Of a DNA stretch of 46,702 bases, positions 4,038 through 44,785 are shown piece after piece. The stretch lies in IMG/VR virus record IMGVR_UViG_2974557979_000001. The stretch is one strand, 5' to 3'. A program made the translations under genes and the position numbers. A model generated the notes under the pieces. It saw only the letters and a program-made list of their open reading frames with translations. It was not told the origin of the DNA and did no database searches. Within the stretch, counting starts at the first letter, position 1. Each line of letters opens with the position of its first letter. This DNA comes from a virus (Duplodnaviria; Heunggongvirae; Uroviricota; Caudoviricetes; Straboviridae).

Positions 4038-5324
4038 TTATTTCAACTTCTTAGAAAGTTCTTTTAAATCATTGAGATACTCAATTTTAGGGGTTGTTTC
4101 TTCCCAGTATTTCAACTGTTTACGCAATTCTTCGGCTTCGTCTTCCAGCTTTTTGCTTTCGTCCGTGGTTAGATGGTAGATGTTCATAGCCACTAACATT
4201 TCGGCATGATTCTCGCAACCTATCCACGTAGACACGAATTTAACCGCTTCGCTGCGACTAAGGCCACGCAGAGAATCAGGAGATTCTACCATTTGAGCAA
4301 TAAACGCAACCTTTGCCAGTGCTTTATCTAACGCTTCCTTAGTTTCTTGGATACGCTTATTGATACGCTGTTGATATACATTCATACGAATATCAACGAA
4401 ATCCTTTAGAAGCGTTTCGGGGCGTTCATATGAGTATAATTTACCCTCAAAGATAACGTTAATGTTTGGGTTTGAATTTTCAATCAACCCGAAATCTTTC
4501 AGGATCTTTTCGCGGGTTAACCCGTTGGCATACTCTCGCTTGAGCGTTACTTCATAACGAAAATCTTCTTTCGATAGATCCTTGTAGCTAACGATAACGC
4601 CTTTTTCTTCCAGCTTGTCAAGGATTGCAATGTATTTCACACGGTCATATTTCACTGGGATCTCGGTGATCACCAATTTGGTTTTACCTTGCAATTCATA
4701 CGTGCCGTAAATTGTACCGTCTGTGATTTCACCTTTAAAGTAAGGGTATTTCAGATCCAGTGTGAAATCTTTATCATTCAGATATGCAATGCACCCGTTA
4801 ACAACCGATTTAGGATCATGAGGCGGAATGTTTGTTGCATATGCTTTTGCAATCCCGCTAAACCCGTTAACCAGTACCATCGGAATGATCGGGAGATAGT
4901 ACGCTGGCGGTACATGTTCCGGATCTTCATGAACTGGCGTTAAATCACCATCCATATAAATTGCTTTGAATATTGGCGATAGTTTACACTTGATGTAACG
5001 AGGTGCGCCAGGTTTCTTAACCAAACGGGAACCAAAGAACCCATCACGGTCGAATAACGGAATGTTATTGCACCAGTGCGCCGCCATAAGGGATAACGCT
5101 TCTTCTACAGAGGTTTCCCCGTGGTGATACCCATACATAGCAACACCGCCAGCGATAGAAGCTACTTTCTGAAATCCCGTTCCGCCCTGCATAGCAGAGT
5201 GAATAAAGAAACGGTGAACGGGTTTAAACCCGTCTACCAGGTGCGGGATCGCACGTGAATAAATCGTGTAAAGGGCAAACGTTAGCCCTTCCACCTGTAC
5301 AACATCTTTAATACTTCTTTCCAT
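4038..5324 (-). CDS. 52: DNA topoisomerase II medium subunit gp52
   Basis: DGFKPVHR, YHHGE and GAPRYI (catalytic Tyr) GyrA/ParC-like motifs. Confidence 0.96.
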   Translation of the reverse strand: MERSIKDVVQVEGLTFALYTIYSRAIPHLVDGFKPVHRFFIHSAMQGGTGFQKVASIAGGVAMYGYHHGETSVEEALSLMAAHWCNNIPLFDRDGFFGSRLVKKPGAPRYIKCKLSPIFKAIYMDGDLTPVHEDPEHVPPAYYLPIIPMVLVNGFSGIAKAYATNIPPHDPKSVVNGCIAYLNDKDFTLDLKYPYFKGEITDGTIYGTYELQGKTKLVITEIPVKYDRVKYIAILDKLEEKGVIVSYKDLSKEDFRYEVTLKREYANGLTREKILKDFGLIENSNPNINVIFEGKLYSYERPETLLKDFVDIRMNVYQQRINKRIQETKEALDKALAKVAFIAQMVESPDSLRGLSRSEAVKFVSTWIGCENHAEMLVAMNIYHLTTDESKKLEDEAEELRKQLKYWEETTPKIEYLNDLKELSKKLK

Positions 5325-7222
5325 TAGTCAACCTTAGAAAATTTGTGTTTTCCATTAACCCAATCTTTACGCGGATCAGATTCGTCGCCGAAGCATAGTT
5401 CTAACACTTCTTTGTATTCGTCGTCAAGTACAATGACATCATACTTCAACTGATCACCCAGAACACGGTCGTAATCTTCTTTGCGTAAAGAACCCAGCCC
5501 CTTGATATATCGTACATCTTTTGCTTTATCGCGGAACGGTGCAAACTCATCAAGAGAATAGAACCATTTTTCCTCGCGCCCAACTTTAGCGATAACGATC
5601 GGGGTTCGAATATATCGGATCCGTTTTTCTGCAAACAGAGAAGGCCAACGGCTAAAGAATGCAAGCAACAGGGTTAAAATGTCACCACCGTCAACGTCAG
5701 CATCGACCATGATACCGATATTATCATAAGTCATTCCGGAAGTATCACCAGGATGAATATTGAGGATAGCCATTAGCTCAAACAGTTCTTTGTTTTTGAT
5801 AATGTCTGTAAAACTCATACCCCATGTATTCAGAGGCTTACCACGTAGCGGGAAAGCGCCTTGTGTTTCTTCGTTACGGCATTCGATGAACTGACCAACA
5901 GCGGAATCACCTTCTGTCAGAAACAATGTTGTTTCTATCCCTGGAGTATCGATACCGGAAGCCGGAACGTGTTTAGCAATCTTTGCCTTTTTCGCTTTCT
6001 TTTTCGCTTTGGTGATTGCGGCGGCTTCTGCTGCTTGTTTACGAATCAGTGCGGATTCGATAATCGGGGTAATGATTTCTGGGGTATCCATAATCATTTT
6101 TGCGATCTTTTTGTAATTCAAATTCGCATGATTGTTAAACTCACCTGCTGTATTTGCCAATCGCTCTTTTGTTTGGCTATCGAATGCAGGTGCATTAAAG
6201 TTATGCAGGAATACCACAAGAGTTAAGCATTCTTTTACACGTGCTTTCGGGATCTCGATACTATGCTTTTTCTTGATCATCGGTTCAAGTTCAGAATAGA
6301 TACCATCGATCATACACTCAACATGAACACCGCCATTTTTCGTATCCAGACCGTTAACAAAGGATTTCTGTTTAAACCCGTCCTCAGTGCTCGCCAGAAT
6401 GAAGCTGAGGCGATTATTTGTCTGGACAATGGTTTTATCCCCATACATGGAAGCGTACAGCGGGAAGCGATTAGAGAGCGTTTCGCCGTTATATGTGAAT
6501 TTCACGGACGGGAAAGCAACGGCAAGGGCCATTAAGCGATCCTTAATCACTTCTTTGGTTTCTTCATCGATACCAGTTACACCAAACATAGAGAAGTCTG
6601 GAGTAAACTTAACAGTAGTACCCTGTTCTTTACTGGGGCTGGTTCGGTAATCGATGTTCTGTGCGCCGTCCGTACAGTTAATGGTTACTTTGCGTTTCCC
6701 GTTTGCAGTCTCGCCAATAAAAATCGAGCTATAACAGTTTGTCAGGAAAGAACCAACACCATTCATACCCATCGTTACGCGGTTTTTATCATCGAAGTTA
6801 GAACCTGATTTTGCCATAGTCCATGCAGCAACTGGTTTAGGAACTATTTTCCCGTCTGGGGTTTTTACATCATCCTGGGGAATACCGCGCCCATTATCAG
6901 AGATTTTAACCAGATTATGATCAATGGTTACATCAATCTTATTAGCATGTTTGAATTCAGTTCGGATCGCTTCATCAATCGAGTTATCAAGGATTTCGTT
7001 GATGATTTTAACCAACCCTTCCACGTACTCAACCTTGCGATATTGGCCCATTATGAAACGTTCATGCGCTTCTTTGTTAACCGATCCGACGTACATATTT
7101 GGACGCAACCGAATATGATCGCGATCGCTCATACAAAATGATTCGTCAACCTTTGCGCCTTTTTTGGCTGGTTGTGGTTTCTGTTCTGGTTCATCATCTG
7201 CCAGAAGAAAATCTAAACTCAT
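5324..7222 (-). CDS. 39: DNA topoisomerase II large subunit, fused gp39+gp60
   Basis: RPNMYVGS, EILDNSIDE, DNGRGIP, GMNGVGS (ATPase); TEGDSA, PLRGKPLN, DADVDG, KGLGS (TOPRIM) in one frame. Start set at ATG 7222 behind GAGG. Confidence 0.96.
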   Translation of the reverse strand: MSLDFLLADDEPEQKPQPAKKGAKVDESFCMSDRDHIRLRPNMYVGSVNKEAHERFIMGQYRKVEYVEGLVKIINEILDNSIDEAIRTEFKHANKIDVTIDHNLVKISDNGRGIPQDDVKTPDGKIVPKPVAAWTMAKSGSNFDDKNRVTMGMNGVGSFLTNCYSSIFIGETANGKRKVTINCTDGAQNIDYRTSPSKEQGTTVKFTPDFSMFGVTGIDEETKEVIKDRLMALAVAFPSVKFTYNGETLSNRFPLYASMYGDKTIVQTNNRLSFILASTEDGFKQKSFVNGLDTKNGGVHVECMIDGIYSELEPMIKKKHSIEIPKARVKECLTLVVFLHNFNAPAFDSQTKERLANTAGEFNNHANLNYKKIAKMIMDTPEIITPIIESALIRKQAAEAAAITKAKKKAKKAKIAKHVPASGIDTPGIETTLFLTEGDSAVGQFIECRNEETQGAFPLRGKPLNTWGMSFTDIIKNKELFELMAILNIHPGDTSGMTYDNIGIMVDADVDGGDILTLLLAFFSRWPSLFAEKRIRYIRTPIVIAKVGREEKWFYSLDEFAPFRDKAKDVRYIKGLGSLRKEDYDRVLGDQLKYDVIVLDDEYKEVLELCFGDESDPRKDWVNGKHKFSKVD

Positions 7223-7266
7223 ATTCACCTCTTTGTTTAATCACTGACATTATATAGGGTTCTATG

Positions 7267-7291
7267 AAAAAGAAAACCCCTTTCGGGGTTT
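7267..7291 (-). terminator. intrinsic terminator
   Basis: AAACCCC-GAAA-GGGGTTTT followed by CTTTTT on the minus strand. Confidence 0.75.
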
Positions 7292-22249: not shown

Positions 22250-24949
22250 TTACCAGTCACCGAACAGGTCGTTTAAACTGGCACGTTTTTCATAATCAAT
22301 TTTACATACTTCCGTGATATTAGTCAATGGACTAATAACATGTTTTTCAAACATACCCGGATAATCTACCCATGCCAGAATATCACTTTCGATCTCTGAC
22401 GGTAGTTTATTTCCGGATTGCCACGCGATGCAATCGGCTTGCCACGGGTTTTTATCCCTTAGTGGTAGAACCATTACCTTTTCACCTTCCATGATTGGCG
22501 TAACACCATCAATACCAGCAGTGAAACGGTTAAAGAACAGCACCCCTTTAATATGGTTTGGTGTTCCCTTGATTGGATAGCCAGCCCCATCACGATATTT
22601 CGAAATGTTGTTAGCAGATGATACACCAGCAATTTCCCTGTAGTCAAGTTCCTTATATTCTTCTTCGAACTTTTTATAATGTTCGTGCAAAGATAATTCA
22701 CCTTCTTGCAGGATACGGCGGATCGCTTCTTTCAGGAATACTTTCACAGAGGTCGGAGTACTCGATCGCTGTGTTTCCATACCCATGATTTTCAGTTTCG
22801 GTTTTTCATAGCGGGTTCCTTCGGAGTCCCACACGTTAGCCGCATATCGTTTTTTAGCAGTCCAGAAACTTCCCAACCCTTCGGAACCCAACGGAGGCCC
22901 AGAAATGATTTCACGATCCATAAACATCAGGTGTTCCACGTTGTTCATGTATTCGCAAAGTTCACGATACCCTTTATCGATCATCGGTTCCATTCTTTCT
23001 TTAGCAAAGCGATCCAGGAAGTCAACCCAATGGTTATTATCCTTAAATTTAGCCTCACCACCAACTTTTGCAATCACGTTATCCATGCAAACATAAATGG
23101 AGTCAGTGTCACAGTACCGAACATATGCATGATCCGTAGTACCGCACAGGTCGTTAAGGTATTCGTTTACCTTACGTTCAATCCACTGGATAGCCAACTG
23201 CCCGAACATGGTGATCGCGCTGGCGTTTCGCAGATCGAAGTATCGGAAATGTTCATTACCCAACGCACCATAAAGGGAGTTGATAGAAATCTTACGGTTA
23301 AGCTGTGCTGTGTTCGCTTGTGCGATCTTCTTCTCACACACGCGCTTAACTGCTTTAAGCATTTGTTTTGTAAGAGTTTTCAGAACTGCTTTCGATTCAT
23401 CACTGAAATCTGTATAGAAATCAAAGTCAGGATCGAACATTTGGTTATGTGCGTCTGTTAAGTGTTCGAGTTCGTGCTTGATGAGTTCAAGATTTCGCTC
23501 ACCCGCCATCATTCTTTTTTTCCACATCTTACGCTGATCAAATACTTTCTTGATCTCTACTGGGATCACGCCTTTGATATCACGGCGGAACATCCACCCG
23601 TTAGGAGAACAGCTAAATTCATCGCTAGGGCGCGGCGCGGTCTTATTAATATACTCTTCAAGAGCACGTACCGCAAAACTTCCCATAATCGTTTCAGGGC
23701 TTATATTCACCTGTCGGATGATGGAAGGGTACAGGCTTGTTAAGTCAAACGATACCATGTATTTGTAAGGCCCAGGAACTGGATCCTTCACAAATGCCCC
23801 AGGGTAAGGGGTTTTAGTATGGCGTCTGTTTTCCGGAATAACAACCTTATCTTCACGCAGAGAGTTATAAATGATCGCGTCCCACGTTTTCAGCGGAGAC
23901 ATAACCCCTGGGAAGTTAATTTTTGCATAGTACGCTACAGACAGAACCAGTTCAATAAAGTTTCGTTTACCGTCGATATCAAGTACGCGGATAACGTCAA
24001 CAATGTTGTACGTGATGTACAGTTGGTGATCGCGCTGGCGTAGTTCAGACAGGGAACCTTCATACTCAACTTTATTTTTACCAGTTTCGTATTCCGCGAT
24101 CGCGTCCAGACGGTAAGACGGTTGCGGGGTAAAGCTGAATTTCTTATACAGCGCCATACCATCCATTTGAGCAACGCCGAAAATATCATATCCTAATTGT
24201 TCGTTGCCGTAAGCGTCAGTAGTGGTTCTGGCGGTTACTTTACCAAATGGGCTAAAATGCCTTACCACGTTTTGACCGAAAATGTTCAGGTATCGCGTGA
24301 TGATATATGCAATATCGAATTTGTCAGAGTTCCATCCGGTTACAATAACAGGGGTTCGCTCTTTCCAATCTTTGATATACGCAGACAATAACGACTTCTC
24401 GGTCTGGAAAGACCGATAAACAATTTTGTTTAAATCTTCTTCGCTAATGTCTTTGCGATCAACGTTTTCCGCGCACCATTCCGCAAGGCCACCATCAACC
24501 AGATCGTATACATAGAATTTATCTTCAATGCTATCGTAATGGGTGATCGCATCGATTGGATATTTTGCTTCACGCGGATCCGGAAATTCTGGGGCGGTCA
24601 CCTCGATATCGATAGAAGCAATACGAATATGTTCGCGGTTGTATTCAATTTCATTCCGGTACATGTCAGAAATGTAAGCCAGTCGGTAATCATCCATACC
24701 TAGCGCTTCCATCCCAACATCGCGCATACGTTGCATCCAGTTTTTAGCTTCTTTGATGCTGTCAAACTGTTTTTTGAGGCAAGGCTTGCCGTAAATGTCT
24801 TTGTATGGGGTTTCTACGCCATTCATAGCGTGTTGATACATTACGGGCGCATATTTCGTCTTACGTACCTGTTCGGTGCCGTTAGAGTCAACGAAGCGCT
24901 CATAAATGGTATCTCCCATTTGTTCAACTGATAGGTAAAATTCATTCAT
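22250..24949 (-). CDS. 43: family B DNA polymerase gp43 (unsplit)
   Basis: DIE exonuclease motif, SFDLTSLYPS, KISINSLYG, YCDTDS, KKRY; 899 aa. Confidence 0.97.
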   Translation of the reverse strand: MNEFYLSVEQMGDTIYERFVDSNGTEQVRKTKYAPVMYQHAMNGVETPYKDIYGKPCLKKQFDSIKEAKNWMQRMRDVGMEALGMDDYRLAYISDMYRNEIEYNREHIRIASIDIEVTAPEFPDPREAKYPIDAITHYDSIEDKFYVYDLVDGGLAEWCAENVDRKDISEEDLNKIVYRSFQTEKSLLSAYIKDWKERTPVIVTGWNSDKFDIAYIITRYLNIFGQNVVRHFSPFGKVTARTTTDAYGNEQLGYDIFGVAQMDGMALYKKFSFTPQPSYRLDAIAEYETGKNKVEYEGSLSELRQRDHQLYITYNIVDVIRVLDIDGKRNFIELVLSVAYYAKINFPGVMSPLKTWDAIIYNSLREDKVVIPENRRHTKTPYPGAFVKDPVPGPYKYMVSFDLTSLYPSIIRQVNISPETIMGSFAVRALEEYINKTAPRPSDEFSCSPNGWMFRRDIKGVIPVEIKKVFDQRKMWKKRMMAGERNLELIKHELEHLTDAHNQMFDPDFDFYTDFSDESKAVLKTLTKQMLKAVKRVCEKKIAQANTAQLNRKISINSLYGALGNEHFRYFDLRNASAITMFGQLAIQWIERKVNEYLNDLCGTTDHAYVRYCDTDSIYVCMDNVIAKVGGEAKFKDNNHWVDFLDRFAKERMEPMIDKGYRELCEYMNNVEHLMFMDREIISGPPLGSEGLGSFWTAKKRYAANVWDSEGTRYEKPKLKIMGMETQRSSTPTSVKVFLKEAIRRILQEGELSLHEHYKKFEEEYKELDYREIAGVSSANNISKYRDGAGYPIKGTPNHIKGVLFFNRFTAGIDGVTPIMEGEKVMVLPLRDKNPWQADCIAWQSGNKLPSEIESDILAWVDYPGMFEKHVISPLTNITEVCKIDYEKRASLNDLFGDW

Positions 24950-26043: not shown

Positions 26044-26607
26044 TCACCATTGTTTAATCAATTTTTCCAATTTCTTTTGTTCAGCTTTGTTTTTCACAAT
26101 ACCCAACAAAGACAGAGCGACCTTTGCGTGTTTTCTTTTCCAATCCTCGAACATTCCGAGGTCTTTAAGTTCCTGCAAATATTCCATCGCTGTACGTGTA
26201 TTTACACTGTATTTTTCGCGAAGGATTTCGATAATAATTTTCTCTTCAAAATCTTCCGATAGTTTAGCCCATGCACCGAAGCGTTTAGCCTTCCTAACAG
26301 AGTTGAGATAATAGTTATAGTGCATTTGGTCAGAGATACTACCGCCTACCAGATTCATCACATAAGCGTTATATATCGTGTCTATGTGCTGGCTCATTGC
26401 GTTGTCTACAAAGTACTTATCATACACATCATCGATAACCAACGGAGTTTTACCGTTGTTGATTTCGTCTATGATGTTAAACAAGGTGTTTTCTTTATCC
26501 TTGCCGTACTCTTTGACCAGTTCTTCAACCTTATCCCAATCTTTAGAAAGCCAAGCGGATTCATGCGGGGATAACTCTTCTTCATCCAGAAATTCCGCCA
26601 GGCTCAT
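26044..26607 (-). CDS. 62: clamp loader small subunit gp62
   Basis: 187 aa; SDQMHYNYYLNSVRK..RFG.WAK; between 44 and regA. Confidence 0.93.
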   Translation of the reverse strand: MSLAEFLDEEELSPHESAWLSKDWDKVEELVKEYGKDKENTLFNIIDEINNGKTPLVIDDVYDKYFVDNAMSQHIDTIYNAYVMNLVGGSISDQMHYNYYLNSVRKAKRFGAWAKLSEDFEEKIIIEILREKYSVNTRTAMEYLQELKDLGMFEDWKRKHAKVALSLLGIVKNKAEQKKLEKLIKQW

Positions 26608-27666: not shown

Positions 27667-28332
27667 TTACTTGAATGTGCTACTTGCTTCAAGTACTACG
27701 ACGTAAGCAACGCCGTTATCAGAAGAGAATTTTGCGGCCCCTTTGGAGGAAATCTCTACTTTGTAATCGCTGTTGATGAACTGCATGTTATCAATCTTCA
27801 TATCAAAATTGAAAACATTGTCGCCTTCATACTCACCGACTTCAACAGAGAAAGTTGATTGACTTTCTTTGCTTTTCGCGGTGATGACCAGTTTACCATC
27901 AATCGGTTCAACGGACAGGTCGGTCAGTTTCATCATGCGAGACGCTTTGATCAGTTTTTCGAAATCGTTAGCCGTAATCTGGAAAATCAGATCTGCTACT
28001 GGCATAACCAGACGTTTTTTCGGTTTCGGGATCGTGGTTGCGTCTGCTGAACGTTCGATGATCTTCATCTTGTCACCGCGAATCACGATTTCACCAGTGG
28101 AAATATCGTGAGTGATTTCCGCGTCAGTGCCGACGATGTTCAGCATGTTCAGGAATGAGTTGAGATCGTAGATACCAACATCTTCATCAATCACATCAGC
28201 AATTTCAGCTTCTGCGTATACAACGCTGTTGATTGATTTCGTCATGATGAATGAACCTTTGGTCAGCATGATCGAAGAGTTGATTTGAGAAAAGTTTTTC
28301 AGGATATCAATAGTTTGTTTAGAGAATTTCAT
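27667..28332 (-). CDS. 45: sliding clamp gp45
   Basis: MKFSKQTIDILKNFSQINSSI...YAEAEIAD...IYDLNSFL; 221 aa; synteny. Confidence 0.95.
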   Translation of the reverse strand: MKFSKQTIDILKNFSQINSSIMLTKGSFIMTKSINSVVYAEAEIADVIDEDVGIYDLNSFLNMLNIVGTDAEITHDISTGEIVIRGDKMKIIERSADATTIPKPKKRLVMPVADLIFQITANDFEKLIKASRMMKLTDLSVEPIDGKLVITAKSKESQSTFSVEVGEYEGDNVFNFDMKIDNMQFINSDYKVEISSKGAAKFSSDNGVAYVVVLEASSTFK

Positions 28333-28683: not shown

Positions 28684-29655
28684 TTACATGTCTAACAGTT
28701 TATCCAGGTCGTCATCACCGGAGGTATCAGAATCATCCAGGTCGAACGGTACGCCGTCATCTTCGCCTACCGGAACCGATGCAACACCACCAGATGATTT
28801 CACATCAGATGTCTGATTGTCAAACTTAGCCATTTCGTTATCGAAGTTGCTCAGTTCGCTATCAAGGTCAGCGGAAGCGCTGGAACCAGCAGAACCGATC
28901 GAACTACCCATAACTTTATTGAAGCGAGTGGTCAGGTCAGCCAGCGGTTTAAATTCGCTTTCAGCGGTAATCGGGCGGAGATCGCTCATACCTTCGAAAA
29001 TTGCTTTCTGAACTTCTTCATCGTCGATGTTTTTGATCTTAGCCGGAACACCAAACGAACTATCGTCATAGTTAGGCCAATCACCAACTTTTTTCGCTTT
29101 CAGGGTGAAGTTAGCACCATCAAACGGACAGGTTACAGCAATACCCGGTTCATCAAGTTCTGGATTACCGTTAATTGCGGCGGTGATCTTGTCCATGATT
29201 TTCTTACCGAAGCGGTATTTGAACACCTTACCTTCGTTTTCTGGAGCGCCTGGGTCTTTAACGATCAGGACGTTAGCCCAGAAACTTTGTTTACGACCGA
29301 TCTGGCTCAGTAGCTTATCTTCTGGCCCGTTTTTGTTGGCTTTAGCCTTCTCATACAGATCGTTTTCGGAAATGTACTTACATGCAGGACAGCCGTCATA
29401 ATCGCCGTGGGTAGAGGAACAGTTCTCAATGTACCACTGGTTGTTTTTCTTGAAAGAGTGGCTCACGATACGGACGAACGCCAGTTCATCATCGGAACGT
29501 GCTGGGAGGAATCGAATAACGGCGGAACCGTTTTTCTGTGCGTCCAGGGTCAGTTTCCATTCTTTCTCATCTTTCTGGAAGCCGGAACCACCTTTCAGAT
29601 TTGCTACCTGTGCCTGGAGTTTAGCGGGATCTTGACGTTTAAAAATGCTGCTCAT
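28684..29655 (-). CDS. 32: single-stranded DNA binding protein gp32
   Basis: IFKRQDP N-terminus; WKL...AVIRFLP; H/C zinc site (ENCSSTHGDYDGCPAC); acidic tail. Confidence 0.96.
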   Translation of the reverse strand: MSSIFKRQDPAKLQAQVANLKGGSGFQKDEKEWKLTLDAQKNGSAVIRFLPARSDDELAFVRIVSHSFKKNNQWYIENCSSTHGDYDGCPACKYISENDLYEKAKANKNGPEDKLLSQIGRKQSFWANVLIVKDPGAPENEGKVFKYRFGKKIMDKITAAINGNPELDEPGIAVTCPFDGANFTLKAKKVGDWPNYDDSSFGVPAKIKNIDDEEVQKAIFEGMSDLRPITAESEFKPLADLTTRFNKVMGSSIGSAGSSASADLDSELSNFDNEMAKFDNQTSDVKSSGGVASVPVGEDDGVPFDLDDSDTSGDDDLDKLLDM

Positions 29656-29670: not shown

Positions 29671-30330
29671 TTAGTTTAGTTTGATTAACGTTTGTTTCAT
29701 TAAGTTTCGATATTTTATGATATCTTTTTCAGTAAGGTCAAATATTTTTCTGTATGCCTTTAACTTAATGCTAAAGTCAGACCAAATAATATCATCAGCT
29801 ACTTGATCGTGTTTATTTATGATACCTAAAAATGAGTCAAAAATCAAAAACGATTCGTAAGATATCACATTTGACAGGACAAGTTTGCTTATGTAGGACG
29901 TTGATGATTTTTCGCTGTACTTAAACACCAGAGACACGGGGATCTCTTTCATTTTGGCGAATTCGTACACGTTTTTAACGTCATCCACAAACACGTTATC
30001 TAGTCTTTGTAACTTTCCTATGTACTGCCTGTAAAAGACAATACTATCTTCATCAACATCGCCTACCCAGAAATCAGGATTGGCTACGAAGTTGGAGAGG
30101 AATATAAAATAGATTTCTTTGAATGTAAAGCGTTGAGCTAATTTTACAAAGAAATATCTATCCTTTCGCTTGTTAAAGGCGTTTTCACTAACTTTGATCT
30201 GCCAGTTGTATTGAAGGACATCAAAACGCCCCTGGAAATGAGTTTTCATCGCCAGATATAACTTGTATACAGACAAAGGCACAAGCCGTGAATTCGCCTC
30301 GCTATCAGCAAACGGAGCTTTGAATCTCAC
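29671..30330 (-). CDS. 59: helicase loader gp59
   Basis: SVYKLYLAMKTHFQGRFDVLQYNW...RKDRYFFVKL; 219 aa; between 33 and 32. Confidence 0.93.
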   Translation of the reverse strand: MRFKAPFADSEANSRLVPLSVYKLYLAMKTHFQGRFDVLQYNWQIKVSENAFNKRKDRYFFVKLAQRFTFKEIYFIFLSNFVANPDFWVGDVDEDSIVFYRQYIGKLQRLDNVFVDDVKNVYEFAKMKEIPVSLVFKYSEKSSTSYISKLVLSNVISYESFLIFDSFLGIINKHDQVADDIIWSDFSIKLKAYRKIFDLTEKDIIKYRNLMKQTLIKLN

Positions 30331-30572
30331 ATGAAGCCGTCCAGAGTGGTTGATGAACTATGTTCAAGCGCAACCGATGGGCGAAGCATGTTTCCTTTGA
30401 TCGCTTCGTCGCTAATCTTATCAAGGATCGCGCGAGGAACCGTTTTATTCAGCATCGCATAATCAATAGAATTTTCATCCATCCATTGTAGCGTTGCTTC
30501 CATGTAGGTTGCCCCCTCAGAGGCAACCAGATTTTCGATATACAAACCGACTTCGGTCTTATTTCCGATCAT
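30327..30572 (-). CDS. 33: late transcription co-activator gp33
   Basis: IENLV..EGATYMEATLQWMDENSID...LRPS; clamp-binding-like C-terminus TLDGFM. Confidence 0.9.
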   Translation of the reverse strand: MIGNKTEVGLYIENLVASEGATYMEATLQWMDENSIDYAMLNKTVPRAILDKISDEAIKGNMLRPSVALEHSSSTTLDGFM

Positions 30573-30848: not shown

Positions 30849-31784
30849 TCAAAAATCACTCAGTTTTTCGAACATACGGGAAAGTTTGTTATCCATGAAG
30901 TAACGTTCCATTTTGGCTTTACTTCCGGATTTTGGAGTATTATACGCTTCAATAATCGAATTTTCAATATCTTTTGGTATAAATTCGAAATCGCGTAGTT
31001 CCTCATTTTCTTTGTAACGTGCGGCCCATTCAGGGGTCATCAATGTTGTCGGATCGTCTGCCTCCAGCCATGCCTCTAACTCAGAGGATTTTACCGCTGG
31101 GGCGCGTTCACCTTCAACCTTCGTCACAATATAATCATTTCTAATTTTAATGCAAGCGATACTATCTTTTTTATCGCCTTTGATATTTTTGTATCGCAGA
31201 TCGTTACGTGGCGAACCGTACTTAGGCGTTACCCATTTTTTCTGGGGAGGCGACCATTGACGAACACCGTTATATTTCTGTAGTTGTGTAAAGTCGCTAT
31301 CAGCAGAAACCACTAATACTCGTCTACCTTCACCAACAGCTTTTTTCGTAACAACAGCAATTATATCATCAGCTTCCGCGAATTCAACCTTTAATCCGAG
31401 ATAAGGCATATTCTGACGGATTTCTTCGAACACAGGATTAAGGAAGTTGTTCAGACGATCCCAATCCCATTCTGATTCTTCGTGTTCGATCTGACGACGT
31501 TTTTTGTAGTACCAGGCTTTTTGCCTACGCCAGTAATTTCTGTCATCGAAGGCAATCACGATTTCTGGATACTCACCTTTAAATTTTACAACGTTAAACC
31601 GTAAAGTGTCAAGCACCAGATGACGAATCATTTCGATCGTGATGGATGCTTGTTCCTTTGGTTTGAAGTTGTTCATCAGTGTAGCGATGGAAATGTTAGA
31701 GATATCGATGACCATAGTATCATCGGGTTCCCCTTCATCTTGCATCAGCTTGTTCAAGTTAAACATGCTTGCAAAACTGCTCAT
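30849..31784 (-). CDS. rnh: RNase H / 5'-3' exonuclease (FEN1 family)
   Basis: IDISNI, WRRQKAWYYKKRR, EADDII, SADSDFTQL, KGDKKD. Confidence 0.95.
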   Translation of the reverse strand: MSSFASMFNLNKLMQDEGEPDDTMVIDISNISIATLMNNFKPKEQASITIEMIRHLVLDTLRFNVVKFKGEYPEIVIAFDDRNYWRRQKAWYYKKRRQIEHEESEWDWDRLNNFLNPVFEEIRQNMPYLGLKVEFAEADDIIAVVTKKAVGEGRRVLVVSADSDFTQLQKYNGVRQWSPPQKKWVTPKYGSPRNDLRYKNIKGDKKDSIACIKIRNDYIVTKVEGERAPAVKSSELEAWLEADDPTTLMTPEWAARYKENEELRDFEFIPKDIENSIIEAYNTPKSGSKAKMERYFMDNKLSRMFEKLSDF

Positions 31785-32088: not shown

Positions 32089-32616
32089 ATGAATACTATG
32101 ACTAAAGAAACAACCAATATCTACGCAGACAATGAAAAATTATACCCTATCCTCTGTGCATGGAAAAAGCAAATCGCCGAAACAGGTGATCGCAAAATGC
32201 CTAATGAGTTGGGGGCTGCTATTATGGATATTGCAAACGGGCTATCACGTCGTTACAACTTCAACCGTTATTCCGAAGATTGGAAAATGGATATGATCGA
32301 TGACGGAATTTCCGCTGCAATCTCAGGACTGCATAACTTCGATGAAACTCGTTATACCAACGTTTACGGTTACATTAACAAAGCATGTTGGCAAGCATTC
32401 GTAACACGTATTCTGTACGAGAAAAAAGAGAACGCGAAGAAATATAAATTCTTCCTTGAGCACGTTTACGACTGCGAAGATTCAGATATGGTTAGTATTG
32501 CAGACGAAGGTTTCATTCAAGATCTACATGACAAACTATCTCAGTACGAGGCTTCCGCCACCAAAACCAAAGACAAGGAAGCGGAAGTATTCCCAACATT
32601 GGAAGATTTTCTATGA
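32089..32616 (+). CDS. 55: late sigma factor gp55
   Basis: YADNEKLY...LGAAIMDIANGLSRRYNFNRYSEDWKMDMIDDG...NFDE; C-terminal TLEDFL. Confidence 0.94.
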   Translation: MNTMTKETTNIYADNEKLYPILCAWKKQIAETGDRKMPNELGAAIMDIANGLSRRYNFNRYSEDWKMDMIDDGISAAISGLHNFDETRYTNVYGYINKACWQAFVTRILYEKKENAKKYKFFLEHVYDCEDSDMVSIADEGFIQDLHDKLSQYEASATKTKDKEAEVFPTLEDFL

Positions 32617-43317: not shown

Positions 43318-44493
43318 ATGTTAACAGTAATGAATACAAACCCAGATCATAACCACTTAGAACAACCTATGTTTTTTGGTGAAGATACTGGTGTTGCACG
43401 TTATGAATCGCAGAAACACAAAGTTTTCGAAAGCCTGACGCAAAAACAGCTTTCTTTCTTCTGGCGTCCGGAAGAAGTCGATCTGTCTACTGACCGTATG
43501 CAGTATGCAAAACTTCCTGAACATGAAAAAATCATTTTCGATTCTAACCTACAGTATCAAACCCTGTTAGATACTATTCAGGGACGTGGGCCTAACCTCG
43601 CATTTTTGCCAATTGCATCCGATGTGAGCATGGAAACCTGGATCGAAACGTGGGCGTTTAGTGAAACCATCCACAGCCGTAGTTACACGCATATTCAACG
43701 TAACTTGCACATTGATCCTTCTGTACAGTTCGACCAAATCCTTCGCAATGAAGCGATTATGAAACGTTCCGCATCAATGACACGGTATTATGATACTCTG
43801 ATTGATGAATGTCATAAGCTGAAAACTATCATGATGCTACAGGAACAGGTTAGCGGCTATAAACCAAATGATCCGGCTGTCGTGTATTATAACGAGCAAT
43901 ACACTAAACAGGCCACTAAGTGCAAAGAAGCACTGTACCTTTGTATGCACGCTGTGAACGCTCTGGAAGCGATCCGTTTCTATGTGTCGTTTAGTTTCAC
44001 CTTTAATTTTGCTGAACAAGGCAAAATGGAAGGCAACGCGAAAATTATGCGCCTGATTGCGCGTGATGAAGCATTGCATCAGAAAGGTACTCAGAGTAAA
44101 ATCCGTTTGTGGCAAATGGGTAAAGATGATCCAGAAATGGTTGAAATCTCCCGTAGGCTGAAAAAAGAAGCAACGGCTATCTTCCTGGAAGTATATGAAC
44201 AGGAAAAAGAATGGGCTGAACATTTATTCTCTGTTGGTGATGTAGAAGGTGTATCGCTGAAAAGCACTATCGCTTATATTGAACACCTTACAGATCAGCG
44301 TATGCGAGCGGTAGGGCTTGATTCGCCATTCACCCCGATCCCTAACCCGTATCCGTGGATGAATAAATGGCTCAAAAGTGATAACGTACAGGTTGCCCCG
44401 CAAGAGGTTGAAGTAAGTTCTTACCTCGTCGGAAACTTGAATACTGAAATCAGTGATGAAGCGTATGCAAAATGGGCCAGCAAATACGCGTGA
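43318..44493 (+). CDS. nrdB: class Ia ribonucleotide reductase beta subunit (intronless)
   Basis: FFWRPEE, QTLLD, ETIHSRSY (radical Tyr), EAIRFYVSF, RDEALH, PQEVEVSSY; start set at ATG 43318. Confidence 0.96.
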   Translation: MLTVMNTNPDHNHLEQPMFFGEDTGVARYESQKHKVFESLTQKQLSFFWRPEEVDLSTDRMQYAKLPEHEKIIFDSNLQYQTLLDTIQGRGPNLAFLPIASDVSMETWIETWAFSETIHSRSYTHIQRNLHIDPSVQFDQILRNEAIMKRSASMTRYYDTLIDECHKLKTIMMLQEQVSGYKPNDPAVVYYNEQYTKQATKCKEALYLCMHAVNALEAIRFYVSFSFTFNFAEQGKMEGNAKIMRLIARDEALHQKGTQSKIRLWQMGKDDPEMVEISRRLKKEATAIFLEVYEQEKEWAEHLFSVGDVEGVSLKSTIAYIEHLTDQRMRAVGLDSPFTPIPNPYPWMNKWLKSDNVQVAPQEVEVSSYLVGNLNTEISDEAYAKWASKYA

Positions 44494-44785
44494 TTGTCGG
44501 GTAGTAAACAAGTACAAAACTGATTGGGATGTCGATATTCAAAGAGGTACGAAGTTCGGCAACCCTTATCACACAGGAACCAGGGGAGAAAACATTTTAG
44601 CGTTTATCCCCTGGTTCCAGAACCAGGTTCGTACTGGGGCGATCACGATTGAAGAATTGAAAGAACTTGATGGAAAGAGGCTTGGTTGTACCTGTGCGCC
44701 TCTTCCCTGTCACGGTGATTACATCGCGCATGTGGTTAATGTTTTGTGTGGTAAGAAAAGATCACTTGACTTTTTGGATATATAA
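44453..44785 (+). CDS. DUF4326-like protein
   Basis: RGTKFGNPY...LKELDGKRLGCTCAPLPCHGD. The start is uncertain because all in-frame starts (44453, 44456, 44465) overlap the nrdB 3' end. Confidence 0.75.
   Translation: MMKRMQNGPANTRDCRVVNKYKTDWDVDIQRGTKFGNPYHTGTRGENILAFIPWFQNQVRTGAITIEELKELDGKRLGCTCAPLPCHGDYIAHVVNVLCGKKRSLDFLDI

Follow-up and report, generated by a model that had tools for sequence, protein, structure and literature searches.

A candidate sliding-clamp-binding motif at the N-terminus of the type II topoisomerase large subunit of KP15/Miro-type phages

Topoisomerase II mutants of T4-family phages have a classic DNA-delay phenotype, and to our knowledge the recruitment of the enzyme to replicating DNA has never been explained by physical contact. 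We asked whether such a contact is written into the large-subunit gene carried by a 46,702-nucleotide stretch of DNA of a member of the Straboviridae (IMG/VR record IMGVR_UViG_2974557979_000001; the whole stretch is called the window below). The product of this gene, a fused gp39+60, begins with the heptad MSLDFLL, in which the original prediction, made from the letters of the window, had seen a possible tether to the sliding clamp gp45. Our comparisons make it probable that residues 2-7 (SLDFLL) are a gp45-binding motif displayed on an unstructured linker of about 18 residues, which would make the topoisomerase a new gp45 client.

The N-terminal extension and its conservation

The gene and its first segments are arranged as follows.

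5324..7222, minus strand: topoisomerase II large subunit, fused gp39+60, 632 aa (phrog_543, E = 1.8e-251)
7202..7222, minus strand: candidate N-terminal sliding-clamp-binding motif MSLDFLL, codons 1-7 (conservation and match to T4 motifs)
7148..7201, minus strand: flexible acidic/Pro/Lys linker ADDEPEQKPQPAKKGAKV, codons 8-25, 18 residues (drift, composition and AlphaFold2)
7085..7147, minus strand: conserved N-terminal strap and start of the GHKL ATPase core DESFCMSDRDHIRLRPNMYVG, codons 26-46 (8ylu alignment; kept in all homologues)
7228..7231, minus strand: Shine-Dalgarno GAGG, 5 nt 5' of the ATG at 7222 (ribosome-binding site in NC_041981)

The source of the window is a Slopekvirus of KP15/Miro type (Straboviridae), and its coordinates are those of NC_041981 (Klebsiella phage Miro). 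Over the 600 bases around the heptad, identity is 100% with Miro and with three Klebsiella phages of the ER series, and 99.8% with KP15 and further Slopekvirus records; 173 phage records match the stretch that holds the topoisomerase tag. The annotation of NC_041981 names the gene "DNA topoisomerase II large subunit, T4 gp39-like" (5324-7222, minus) and gives a ribosome-binding site (RBS) at 7228-7231. The protein order is MSLDFLL, ADDEPEQKPQPAKKGAKV, DESFCMSDRDHIRLRPNMYVG and then the rest of a GHKL-transducer-TOPRIM protein, and a peptide taken from the tagged N-terminus reads SLDFLLADDEPE. The open reading frame, the GAGG site and the annotation thus bear out the predicted start at 7222, with an acidic/Pro/Lys linker between heptad and core.

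The large subunit is a type IIA topoisomerase of the T4 gp39/gp60 type, as judged by its domains, its full-length homology and the gp52 gene next door. Precomputed Pfam matches comprise HATPase_c (PF02518), DNA_gyraseB (PF00204), Toprim (PF01751) and PF16898, which we take to be TOPRIM_C. Solved chains of T-even topoisomerase II (8ylu, 8yo3) match it, 8ylu with E = 6e-196 over query residues 29-626, and query residue 29 pairs with residue 7 of these structures. Because the alignment begins only at residue 29, the window protein has about 22-25 residues more than the T4-type enzyme. The original prediction had stated that T4 gp39 has no such extension, and this proved right: T4-type gp39 begins MIKNEIKILSD, the frames upstream are closed, and the T-even structures align from residue 29 onwards.

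Translation from the first ATG is also indicated by the relatives, in agreement with what had been predicted. The AAAGAGGTGAAT-ATG context is common to RB43, RB16, Lw1, CfP1 and Karam-like phages, and the sole downstream in-frame Met, residue 31, is replaced by Leu in almost all relatives, so that a start below the motif is impossible in them. Among the relatives the motif codons vary synonymously (TTT/TTC for Phe5, CTT/TTA for Leu6).

We gathered 269 topoisomerase homologues from two database searches. Of these, 33 carry an extension of at least 15 residues and fit a looser N-terminal pattern, in which M is followed, after no more than two residues, by L-[DEN]-x-[LI]; a separate core pattern gave 23 N-terminal and 2 weak internal matches. 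The tag variants were MSLDFL(L/M), MNLDFLM, MNLDSLF, MSLEFLF, MTLDALF, MLDFLF and MLDKLF, together with MLDKIL, MLDQIL, MLDEIL, MSLDFLN, MLDFLY and MLDFLD. Position counts and identities were taken from an alignment of 26 tag-bearing relatives, whose common peptide has the form x-L-D-x-(L/I)-hydrophobic. Leu3 was present in 26/26 and Asp4 in 25/26; position 6 was L/I in 26/26, position 7 was hydrophobic in 24/26, and positions 8-10 after the tag were mostly Asp/Glu. The linker ranged from 9 to 27 residues in length, with E, K, P, V and D making up 68% of its residues. Mean pairwise identity was 0.65 in the motif, 0.17 in the linker and 0.60 in the adjacent strap/core; between subclades the values were 0.55 for the motif, 0.13 for the linker and 0.37 for the adjacent core. 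By this alignment the motif is kept by selection in the relatives, as a fixed hook on a drifting leash, which is what the original prediction had anticipated and what is expected of a functional tag.

A clamp-type peptide at the C-terminus or inside the 269 homologues was limited to two weak C-terminal cases (P0257 and P0264) and two weak internal ones, so a second, independent topoisomerase-clamp tag is not evidenced within this set. The weak case of P0257, a distant large subunit (32% identity), reads ...SSFDLFLV within a C-terminus ending ...KRKDMLKGSSFDLFLV; it is a possible clamp-type tail, a single case without other support.

Two side observations concern the architecture of the homologues. 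The 1074-aa protein of Morganella phage vB_Mm5 (P0023), which starts MSLEFLF, appears to be fused with a gp52-type DNA_topoisoIV domain (PF00521), a layout resembling that of eukaryotic topo II, although it may be a sequencing or annotation artefact. Six proteins of 659-703 aa (P0124, P0128, P0130, P0132, P0142 and P0143) show two separate matching stretches and carry additional residues near positions 490-500 of the query. The split between gp39 and gp60 in T4 lies at this place, which suggests a hotspot of repeated insertion.

Trees were computed without the N-terminal region, from quick searches and with some long branches. The tag-bearing enzymes formed two strongly supported subclades (Shimodaira-Hasegawa-like approximate likelihood ratio test (SH-aLRT) 98-99). 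Subclade A holds KP15/Miro, Karam-like Enterobacter phages, RB43/RB16/Lw1/CfP1, Pantoea Phynn, Pectobacterium POP12 and Morganella vB_Mm5; subclade B is metagenomic throughout and includes the contigs G002 and L003. Two trees join these subclades, with SH-aLRT values of 96 and 87, and place the tag-less enzymes of T-even and Aeromonas phages as their sister group, with KVP40 outside. Two or three changes of tag state suffice for these trees, and the tag may have been gained once.

Absence of the tag is real and not an artefact of gene calling. Of 80 IMG/VR loci, 8 had it (L004-L010 and L023), and the 72 without it have a frame 5' of the core that closes within at most 34 codons and encodes no such peptide. 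The gp39 of KVP40 begins MSKQDNFQILSD directly after the upstream gene, without an extension. A loss of the tag in KVP40 was considered and dropped, since KVP40 lies outside the tag-bearing subclades and a loss need not be assumed.

Likeness to gp45-binding peptides and the clamp pocket

The hexad SLDFLL fits the general form (S/T)-L-x-x-hydrophobic-hydrophobic and the T4 consensus (S/T)LDFL(F/L/Y). The T4 motifs cited in the original prediction were found in a T4-like genome as SLDFLFG (gp43), TLDFLL (gp33) and SLDFLYEAND (gp55), in agreement with the published ones; five of the six residues of the topoisomerase hexad are identical to gp33 TLDFLL. The C-terminus of T4 gp43 is EKASLDFLFG, and a ligase-loop peptide containing LDFLF (EPEGLDFLFD) binds gp45 with a dissociation constant of ~10.7 uM, placing Leu231, Phe233, Leu234 and Phe235 of the loop in a hydrophobic pocket of gp45 (PMC6212786). 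This pocket lies between domains and receives the ligase and gp43 peptides (PDB 6DRT, 1B8H). The corresponding topoisomerase residues are Leu3, Phe5, Leu6 and Leu7. In gp33 and gp55 the motif is carried "through a linker" and is said to bind the same hydrophobic patch (PMC7892883). The topoisomerase shares with these tails and the ligase loop an (S/T)-L-D-F-L-hydrophobic core on a flexible segment. The known motifs differ in lying at the opposite terminus or in an internal loop, and their binding is experimental, whereas that of the topoisomerase is predicted from sequence.

A precedent for the N-terminal location is T4 RNase H (rnh), the only documented N-terminal gp45 client, which has an N-terminal PCNA-interacting-protein (PIP) motif and loses gp45 binding when its N-terminal peptide is removed (PMC3012046). 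Like the topoisomerase, it opens with a short hydrophobic motif and continues with acidic residues; the T4-like protein starts MDLEMMLDED. It differs in being a FEN-1-type nuclease with the peptide placed directly on the fold, in contrast to the 18-residue spacer of the topoisomerase.

The proposed docking partner is encoded in the window.

27667..28332, minus strand: gp45 sliding clamp (phrog_223, E = 1e-75; PDB 1czd/1b77, E = 1e-46)

We compared its pocket with that of RB69 gp45, using the residues listed in PMC3012046. K32, Y39, L108, M110, a Lys aligned to K204, and V211 stand where RB69 has R32, Y39, I107, F109, K204 and V217, so that identity or conservative replacement holds for six of the seven residues of the RB69 pocket. 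The seventh, Trp199, lies in a loop that the window protein has shortened by 3 residues.

The structure of the large subunit was predicted as an AlphaFold2 monomer from a 20-sequence alignment. The mean predicted local distance difference test (pLDDT) score was 85.8 for the ATPase domain, 56-60 for residues 1-20 and 71 for residues 21-30. The extension was modelled as coil with a one-turn helix only at residues 4-6, and the motif was not packed on the ATPase domain. The motif stands at the extreme terminus and is joined to the body by a flexible linker.

Terminal motifs on other proteins and the genomic setting

The expected clamp partners named in the original prediction all carry related terminal motifs in the window.

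22262..22279, minus strand: C-terminal SLNDLF of gp43 DNA polymerase, followed by GDW and stop
26587..26607, minus strand: N-terminal MSLAEFL of the clamp-loader small subunit gp62, followed by DEEE
30330..30347, minus strand: C-terminal TLDGFM of gp33 (phrog_254)
32596..32613, plus strand: C-terminal TLEDFL of the late sigma factor gp55 (phrog_234)
31743..31760, minus strand: N-terminal NLNKLM of RNase H, residues 9-14, followed by QDEGE

The RNase H gene (30849-31784, minus) is called from MSSFASMFNLNKLM; a start at Met7 (MFNLNKLM) would put the motif nearer the N-terminus. Alignment with the T4-like MDLEMMLDED suggests that the called start may be mis-assigned.

A census of terminal matches to the pattern [STN]Lxx[LFM][LFMY], which has a frequency of about 5e-4 per residue (5.1e-4 in KP15), was made on three whole phage records that we assembled and whose genes were called crudely. 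The terminal matches in the T4-like genome were three established gp45 binders (gp43, gp33 and gp55) and a 114-aa open reading frame without assigned identity. KP15, the nearest record, gave gp43, gp33, gp55, gp62, the topoisomerase, a Dam methylase and one doubtful small open reading frame, that is, 7 observed against 1.13 expected (Poisson p = 1.8e-4), more than chance would place at termini. A 140-aa KP15 protein beginning MKNLQKLF (phrog_6955) fits the loose pattern without other support and was set aside as doubtful.

The KP15 methylase belongs to the D12 class of N6-adenine methyltransferases (PF02086, E = 2e-20).

L109:18189-18914, equal to G001 151189-151914, plus strand: KP15 Dam methylase

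It has a 14-residue C-terminal extension that ends ...YPETLDDLM, a candidate clamp-binding tail reminiscent of the DNMT1-PCNA pair. The Dam homologue of G002 has no such C-terminal extension; an N-terminal MLNDLF in it was rejected because it is internal, the real start lying 18 codons upstream with its own RBS.

Similar peptides occur on further proteins. In G002, gp62 starts MSLDFLLGEDD, with a heptad identical to that of the window topoisomerase, and the topoisomerase starts MSLSFLLDEQEE. The gp62 N-termini of the window, RB43 (MSLAAFLDEDE) and G002 thus repeat the heptad-plus-acidic pattern seen on the topoisomerase; gp62 starts MDIFELL in KVP40 and, shortened, MSLFEDD in T4. The A domain of gp62 fills the canonical clamp pocket (PMC3331839), and the first residues of gp62 would be the plug that enters it. 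In L003 the topoisomerase starts MLDKLF and the gp43 tail is ...NDLSFLFG; a 721-aa protein of the same contig (19129-21294, plus), with a 5-hydroxymethyldeoxyuridine (5-hmdU) DNA kinase helical domain (PF18723), has a resembling end, ...GGLTDLFGI. Finally, a DUF4326 protein of the window (44453-44785, plus; PF14216, E = 1.6e-18; phrog_464) ends ...GKKRSLDFLDI; this tail, at 44762-44782, contains the SLDFL core of the topoisomerase N-terminus. The census and these tails together suggest that a terminal peptide of this kind is the sign of a protein that acts on DNA together with the clamp.

The immediate surroundings of the topoisomerase gene include two further features.

7274..7291, minus strand: intrinsic terminator of the upstream gene, ~50 nt before the topoisomerase start (annotated in NC_041981)
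4038..5324, minus strand: topoisomerase II DNA-cleavage subunit, gp52-like, partner of the large subunit (phrog_551, E = 3e-181)

The terminator closes the transcription unit that precedes the topoisomerase gene. A sigma-70 promoter scan on the strand of the gene, from terminator to ATG, found no promoter-like site, a result that is uninformative since phage early and middle promoters may differ. Base 5324 is both the end of the large-subunit open reading frame (stop included) and the first base of that of gp52, and this one-base overlap suggests translational coupling.

Alternatives, mechanism and implications

Several observations weigh against gp45 as the receptor of SLDFLL. T4, the best-studied relative, manages without the tag, and all tag-bearing enzymes may share one gain; given a possible single origin, the recurrence of the tag is not independent evidence. 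The pocket position of RB69 Trp199 lies in the shortened loop of the window gp45, and the canonical partners of this clamp carry the looser variants SLNDLF, TLEDFL and TLDGFM, which makes the exact specificity of its pocket uncertain. In addition, gp32 (28684-29655, minus) ends ...SGDDDLDKLLDM, with an acidic L-D-x-L-L peptide (DDDLDKLLDM) that resembles a clamp motif, yet gp32 is not known to bind gp45. The L-D-x-L-L pattern is therefore not unique to clamp clients, and motif-only predictions call for caution.

This last resemblance leads to the alternative that survives best, namely that the tag docks on a replisome hub other than gp45, for instance as a mimic of the gp32 tail, or on another phage or host protein. 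Proteins bound by the acidic C-terminus of gp32 include gp43, gp59 and RNase H, and the likeness of its L-D-x-L-L amid acidic residues to MSLDFLLADDE makes a different receptor conceivable. In bacteria, moreover, the hub that brings a topoisomerase to the fork is SSB for Topo III and MukB/SeqA for Topo IV, rather than the clamp (PMC11253446, PMC13220808). However, position 1 of the motif is S/T/N/M, as in clamp motifs, where the gp32 tail has Asp; the hexad, five-sixths identical to T4-like gp33, is fully identical to the N-terminus of G002 gp62; and the census of terminal motifs points to clamp partners. We regard another receptor as unlikely on this balance. It is still less probable that the extension is an elongated intramolecular strap that reaches the ATPase protomer or transducer of the partner and tunes ATP-gate dimerisation. 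In type IIA topoisomerases (GyrB, topo II) the N-terminal strap crosses to the other GHKL protomer, and the tag is directly N-terminal to the strap; against such a role, the linker is unconserved, varies from 9 to 27 residues and has a spacer-like composition, the AlphaFold2 monomer leaves the motif unpacked, and the identical heptad occurs on the unrelated gp62. That the first codons are kept for mRNA or translation-initiation reasons, or as a neutral relic without binding function, is very improbable: the Shine-Dalgarno and early-codon context is nearly identical in close relatives, but the motif changes synonymously, the adjacent linker codons drift freely, and the distant members L023 and L003 encode the same peptide pattern with other codons and other upstream sequence, all of which argues against constraint at the nucleotide level.

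We infer the binding of the tag to gp45, its stoichiometry and its biological role from sequence. If SLDFLL is a gp45-binding motif, the mature protein would probably start at Ser2, since the initiator Met tends to be removed when the second residue is small. Leu3, Phe5, Leu6 and Leu7 would insert into the hydrophobic pocket of a gp45 subunit, on the model of the T4 ligase loop, the tails of gp43, gp33 and gp55 and the reported RNase H N-terminus, with the neighbouring Asp/Glu residues in contact with the pocket's basic rim. SLDFLL would be presented on its spacer above the N-terminal strap of the ATPase gate. The (gp39+60)2(gp52)2 holoenzyme has two large subunits, hence two tags at the ATP gate, to set against the three pockets of gp45; it is thus geometrically plausible that a single DNA-loaded trimeric clamp is held bivalently. 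Such an arrangement would concentrate the topoisomerase on freshly replicated DNA, at the clamps of the forks and those left on the lagging strand, where it would remove supercoils and precatenanes. Equally possibly, the enzyme would be placed at clamp-activated late transcription complexes.

A broader and more tentative reading is that gp45 serves as a general tool-belt in RB43/RB16/KP15-like phages and the sister metagenomic lineage, and that enzymes acting on new DNA have acquired a portable address peptide at one terminus. The grafts would comprise the topoisomerase II N-terminus, KP15 Dam (TLDDLM), the DUF4326 protein (SLDFLDI) and the 5-hmdU-kinase-like enzyme of the relative. Topoisomerase II would then be physically coupled to the replisome, possibly bivalently, with its ATP gate beside the clamp-encircled duplex. 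If this is true, the literature searched contains no earlier case of a type II topoisomerase coupled to a clamp outside eukaryotes.

No paper linking a phage or bacterial topoisomerase to a sliding clamp was found in that literature, and none on a phage topoisomerase and gp45, in line with the original prediction, which knew of no description of the link for T4-like phages. The 2024 paper on the T-even topoisomerase II structure makes no mention of gp45, the replisome or an N-terminal strap, and 'clamp' occurs in it solely through a clamp-loader paper in the reference list (PMC11461880). The closest analogue is eukaryotic: Topo II alpha is listed among PCNA-interacting replication proteins in a review table (PMC9690074), which likewise links a type II topoisomerase to a clamp. 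PCNA clients differ in that the clamp is another one, the motif is Qxx[LIM]xx[FY][FY], the enzyme is a eukaryotic single chain and the tags are unrelated in sequence. The bacterial systems resemble the proposed tag in bringing a topoisomerase to replicated DNA via a protein hub, although the hubs in the cited reviews are SMC, SeqA or SSB and the one proposed here is the sliding clamp.

A clamp-binding tag, if true, would provide a simple mechanism for the recruitment of topoisomerase II to replicating DNA. The phages concerned, those of Klebsiella, Enterobacter, Citrobacter and Escherichia, form a large group that is in use for therapy. A type II topoisomerase would join the clients of a prokaryotic-virus clamp, in parallel to PCNA and Topo II alpha, and RB43 and KP15 with the tag and T4 and KVP40 without it offer a natural comparison. 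The finding would also support the terminal LDFL-type peptide as a movable address label, from which new clamp clients may be predicted from sequence alone.

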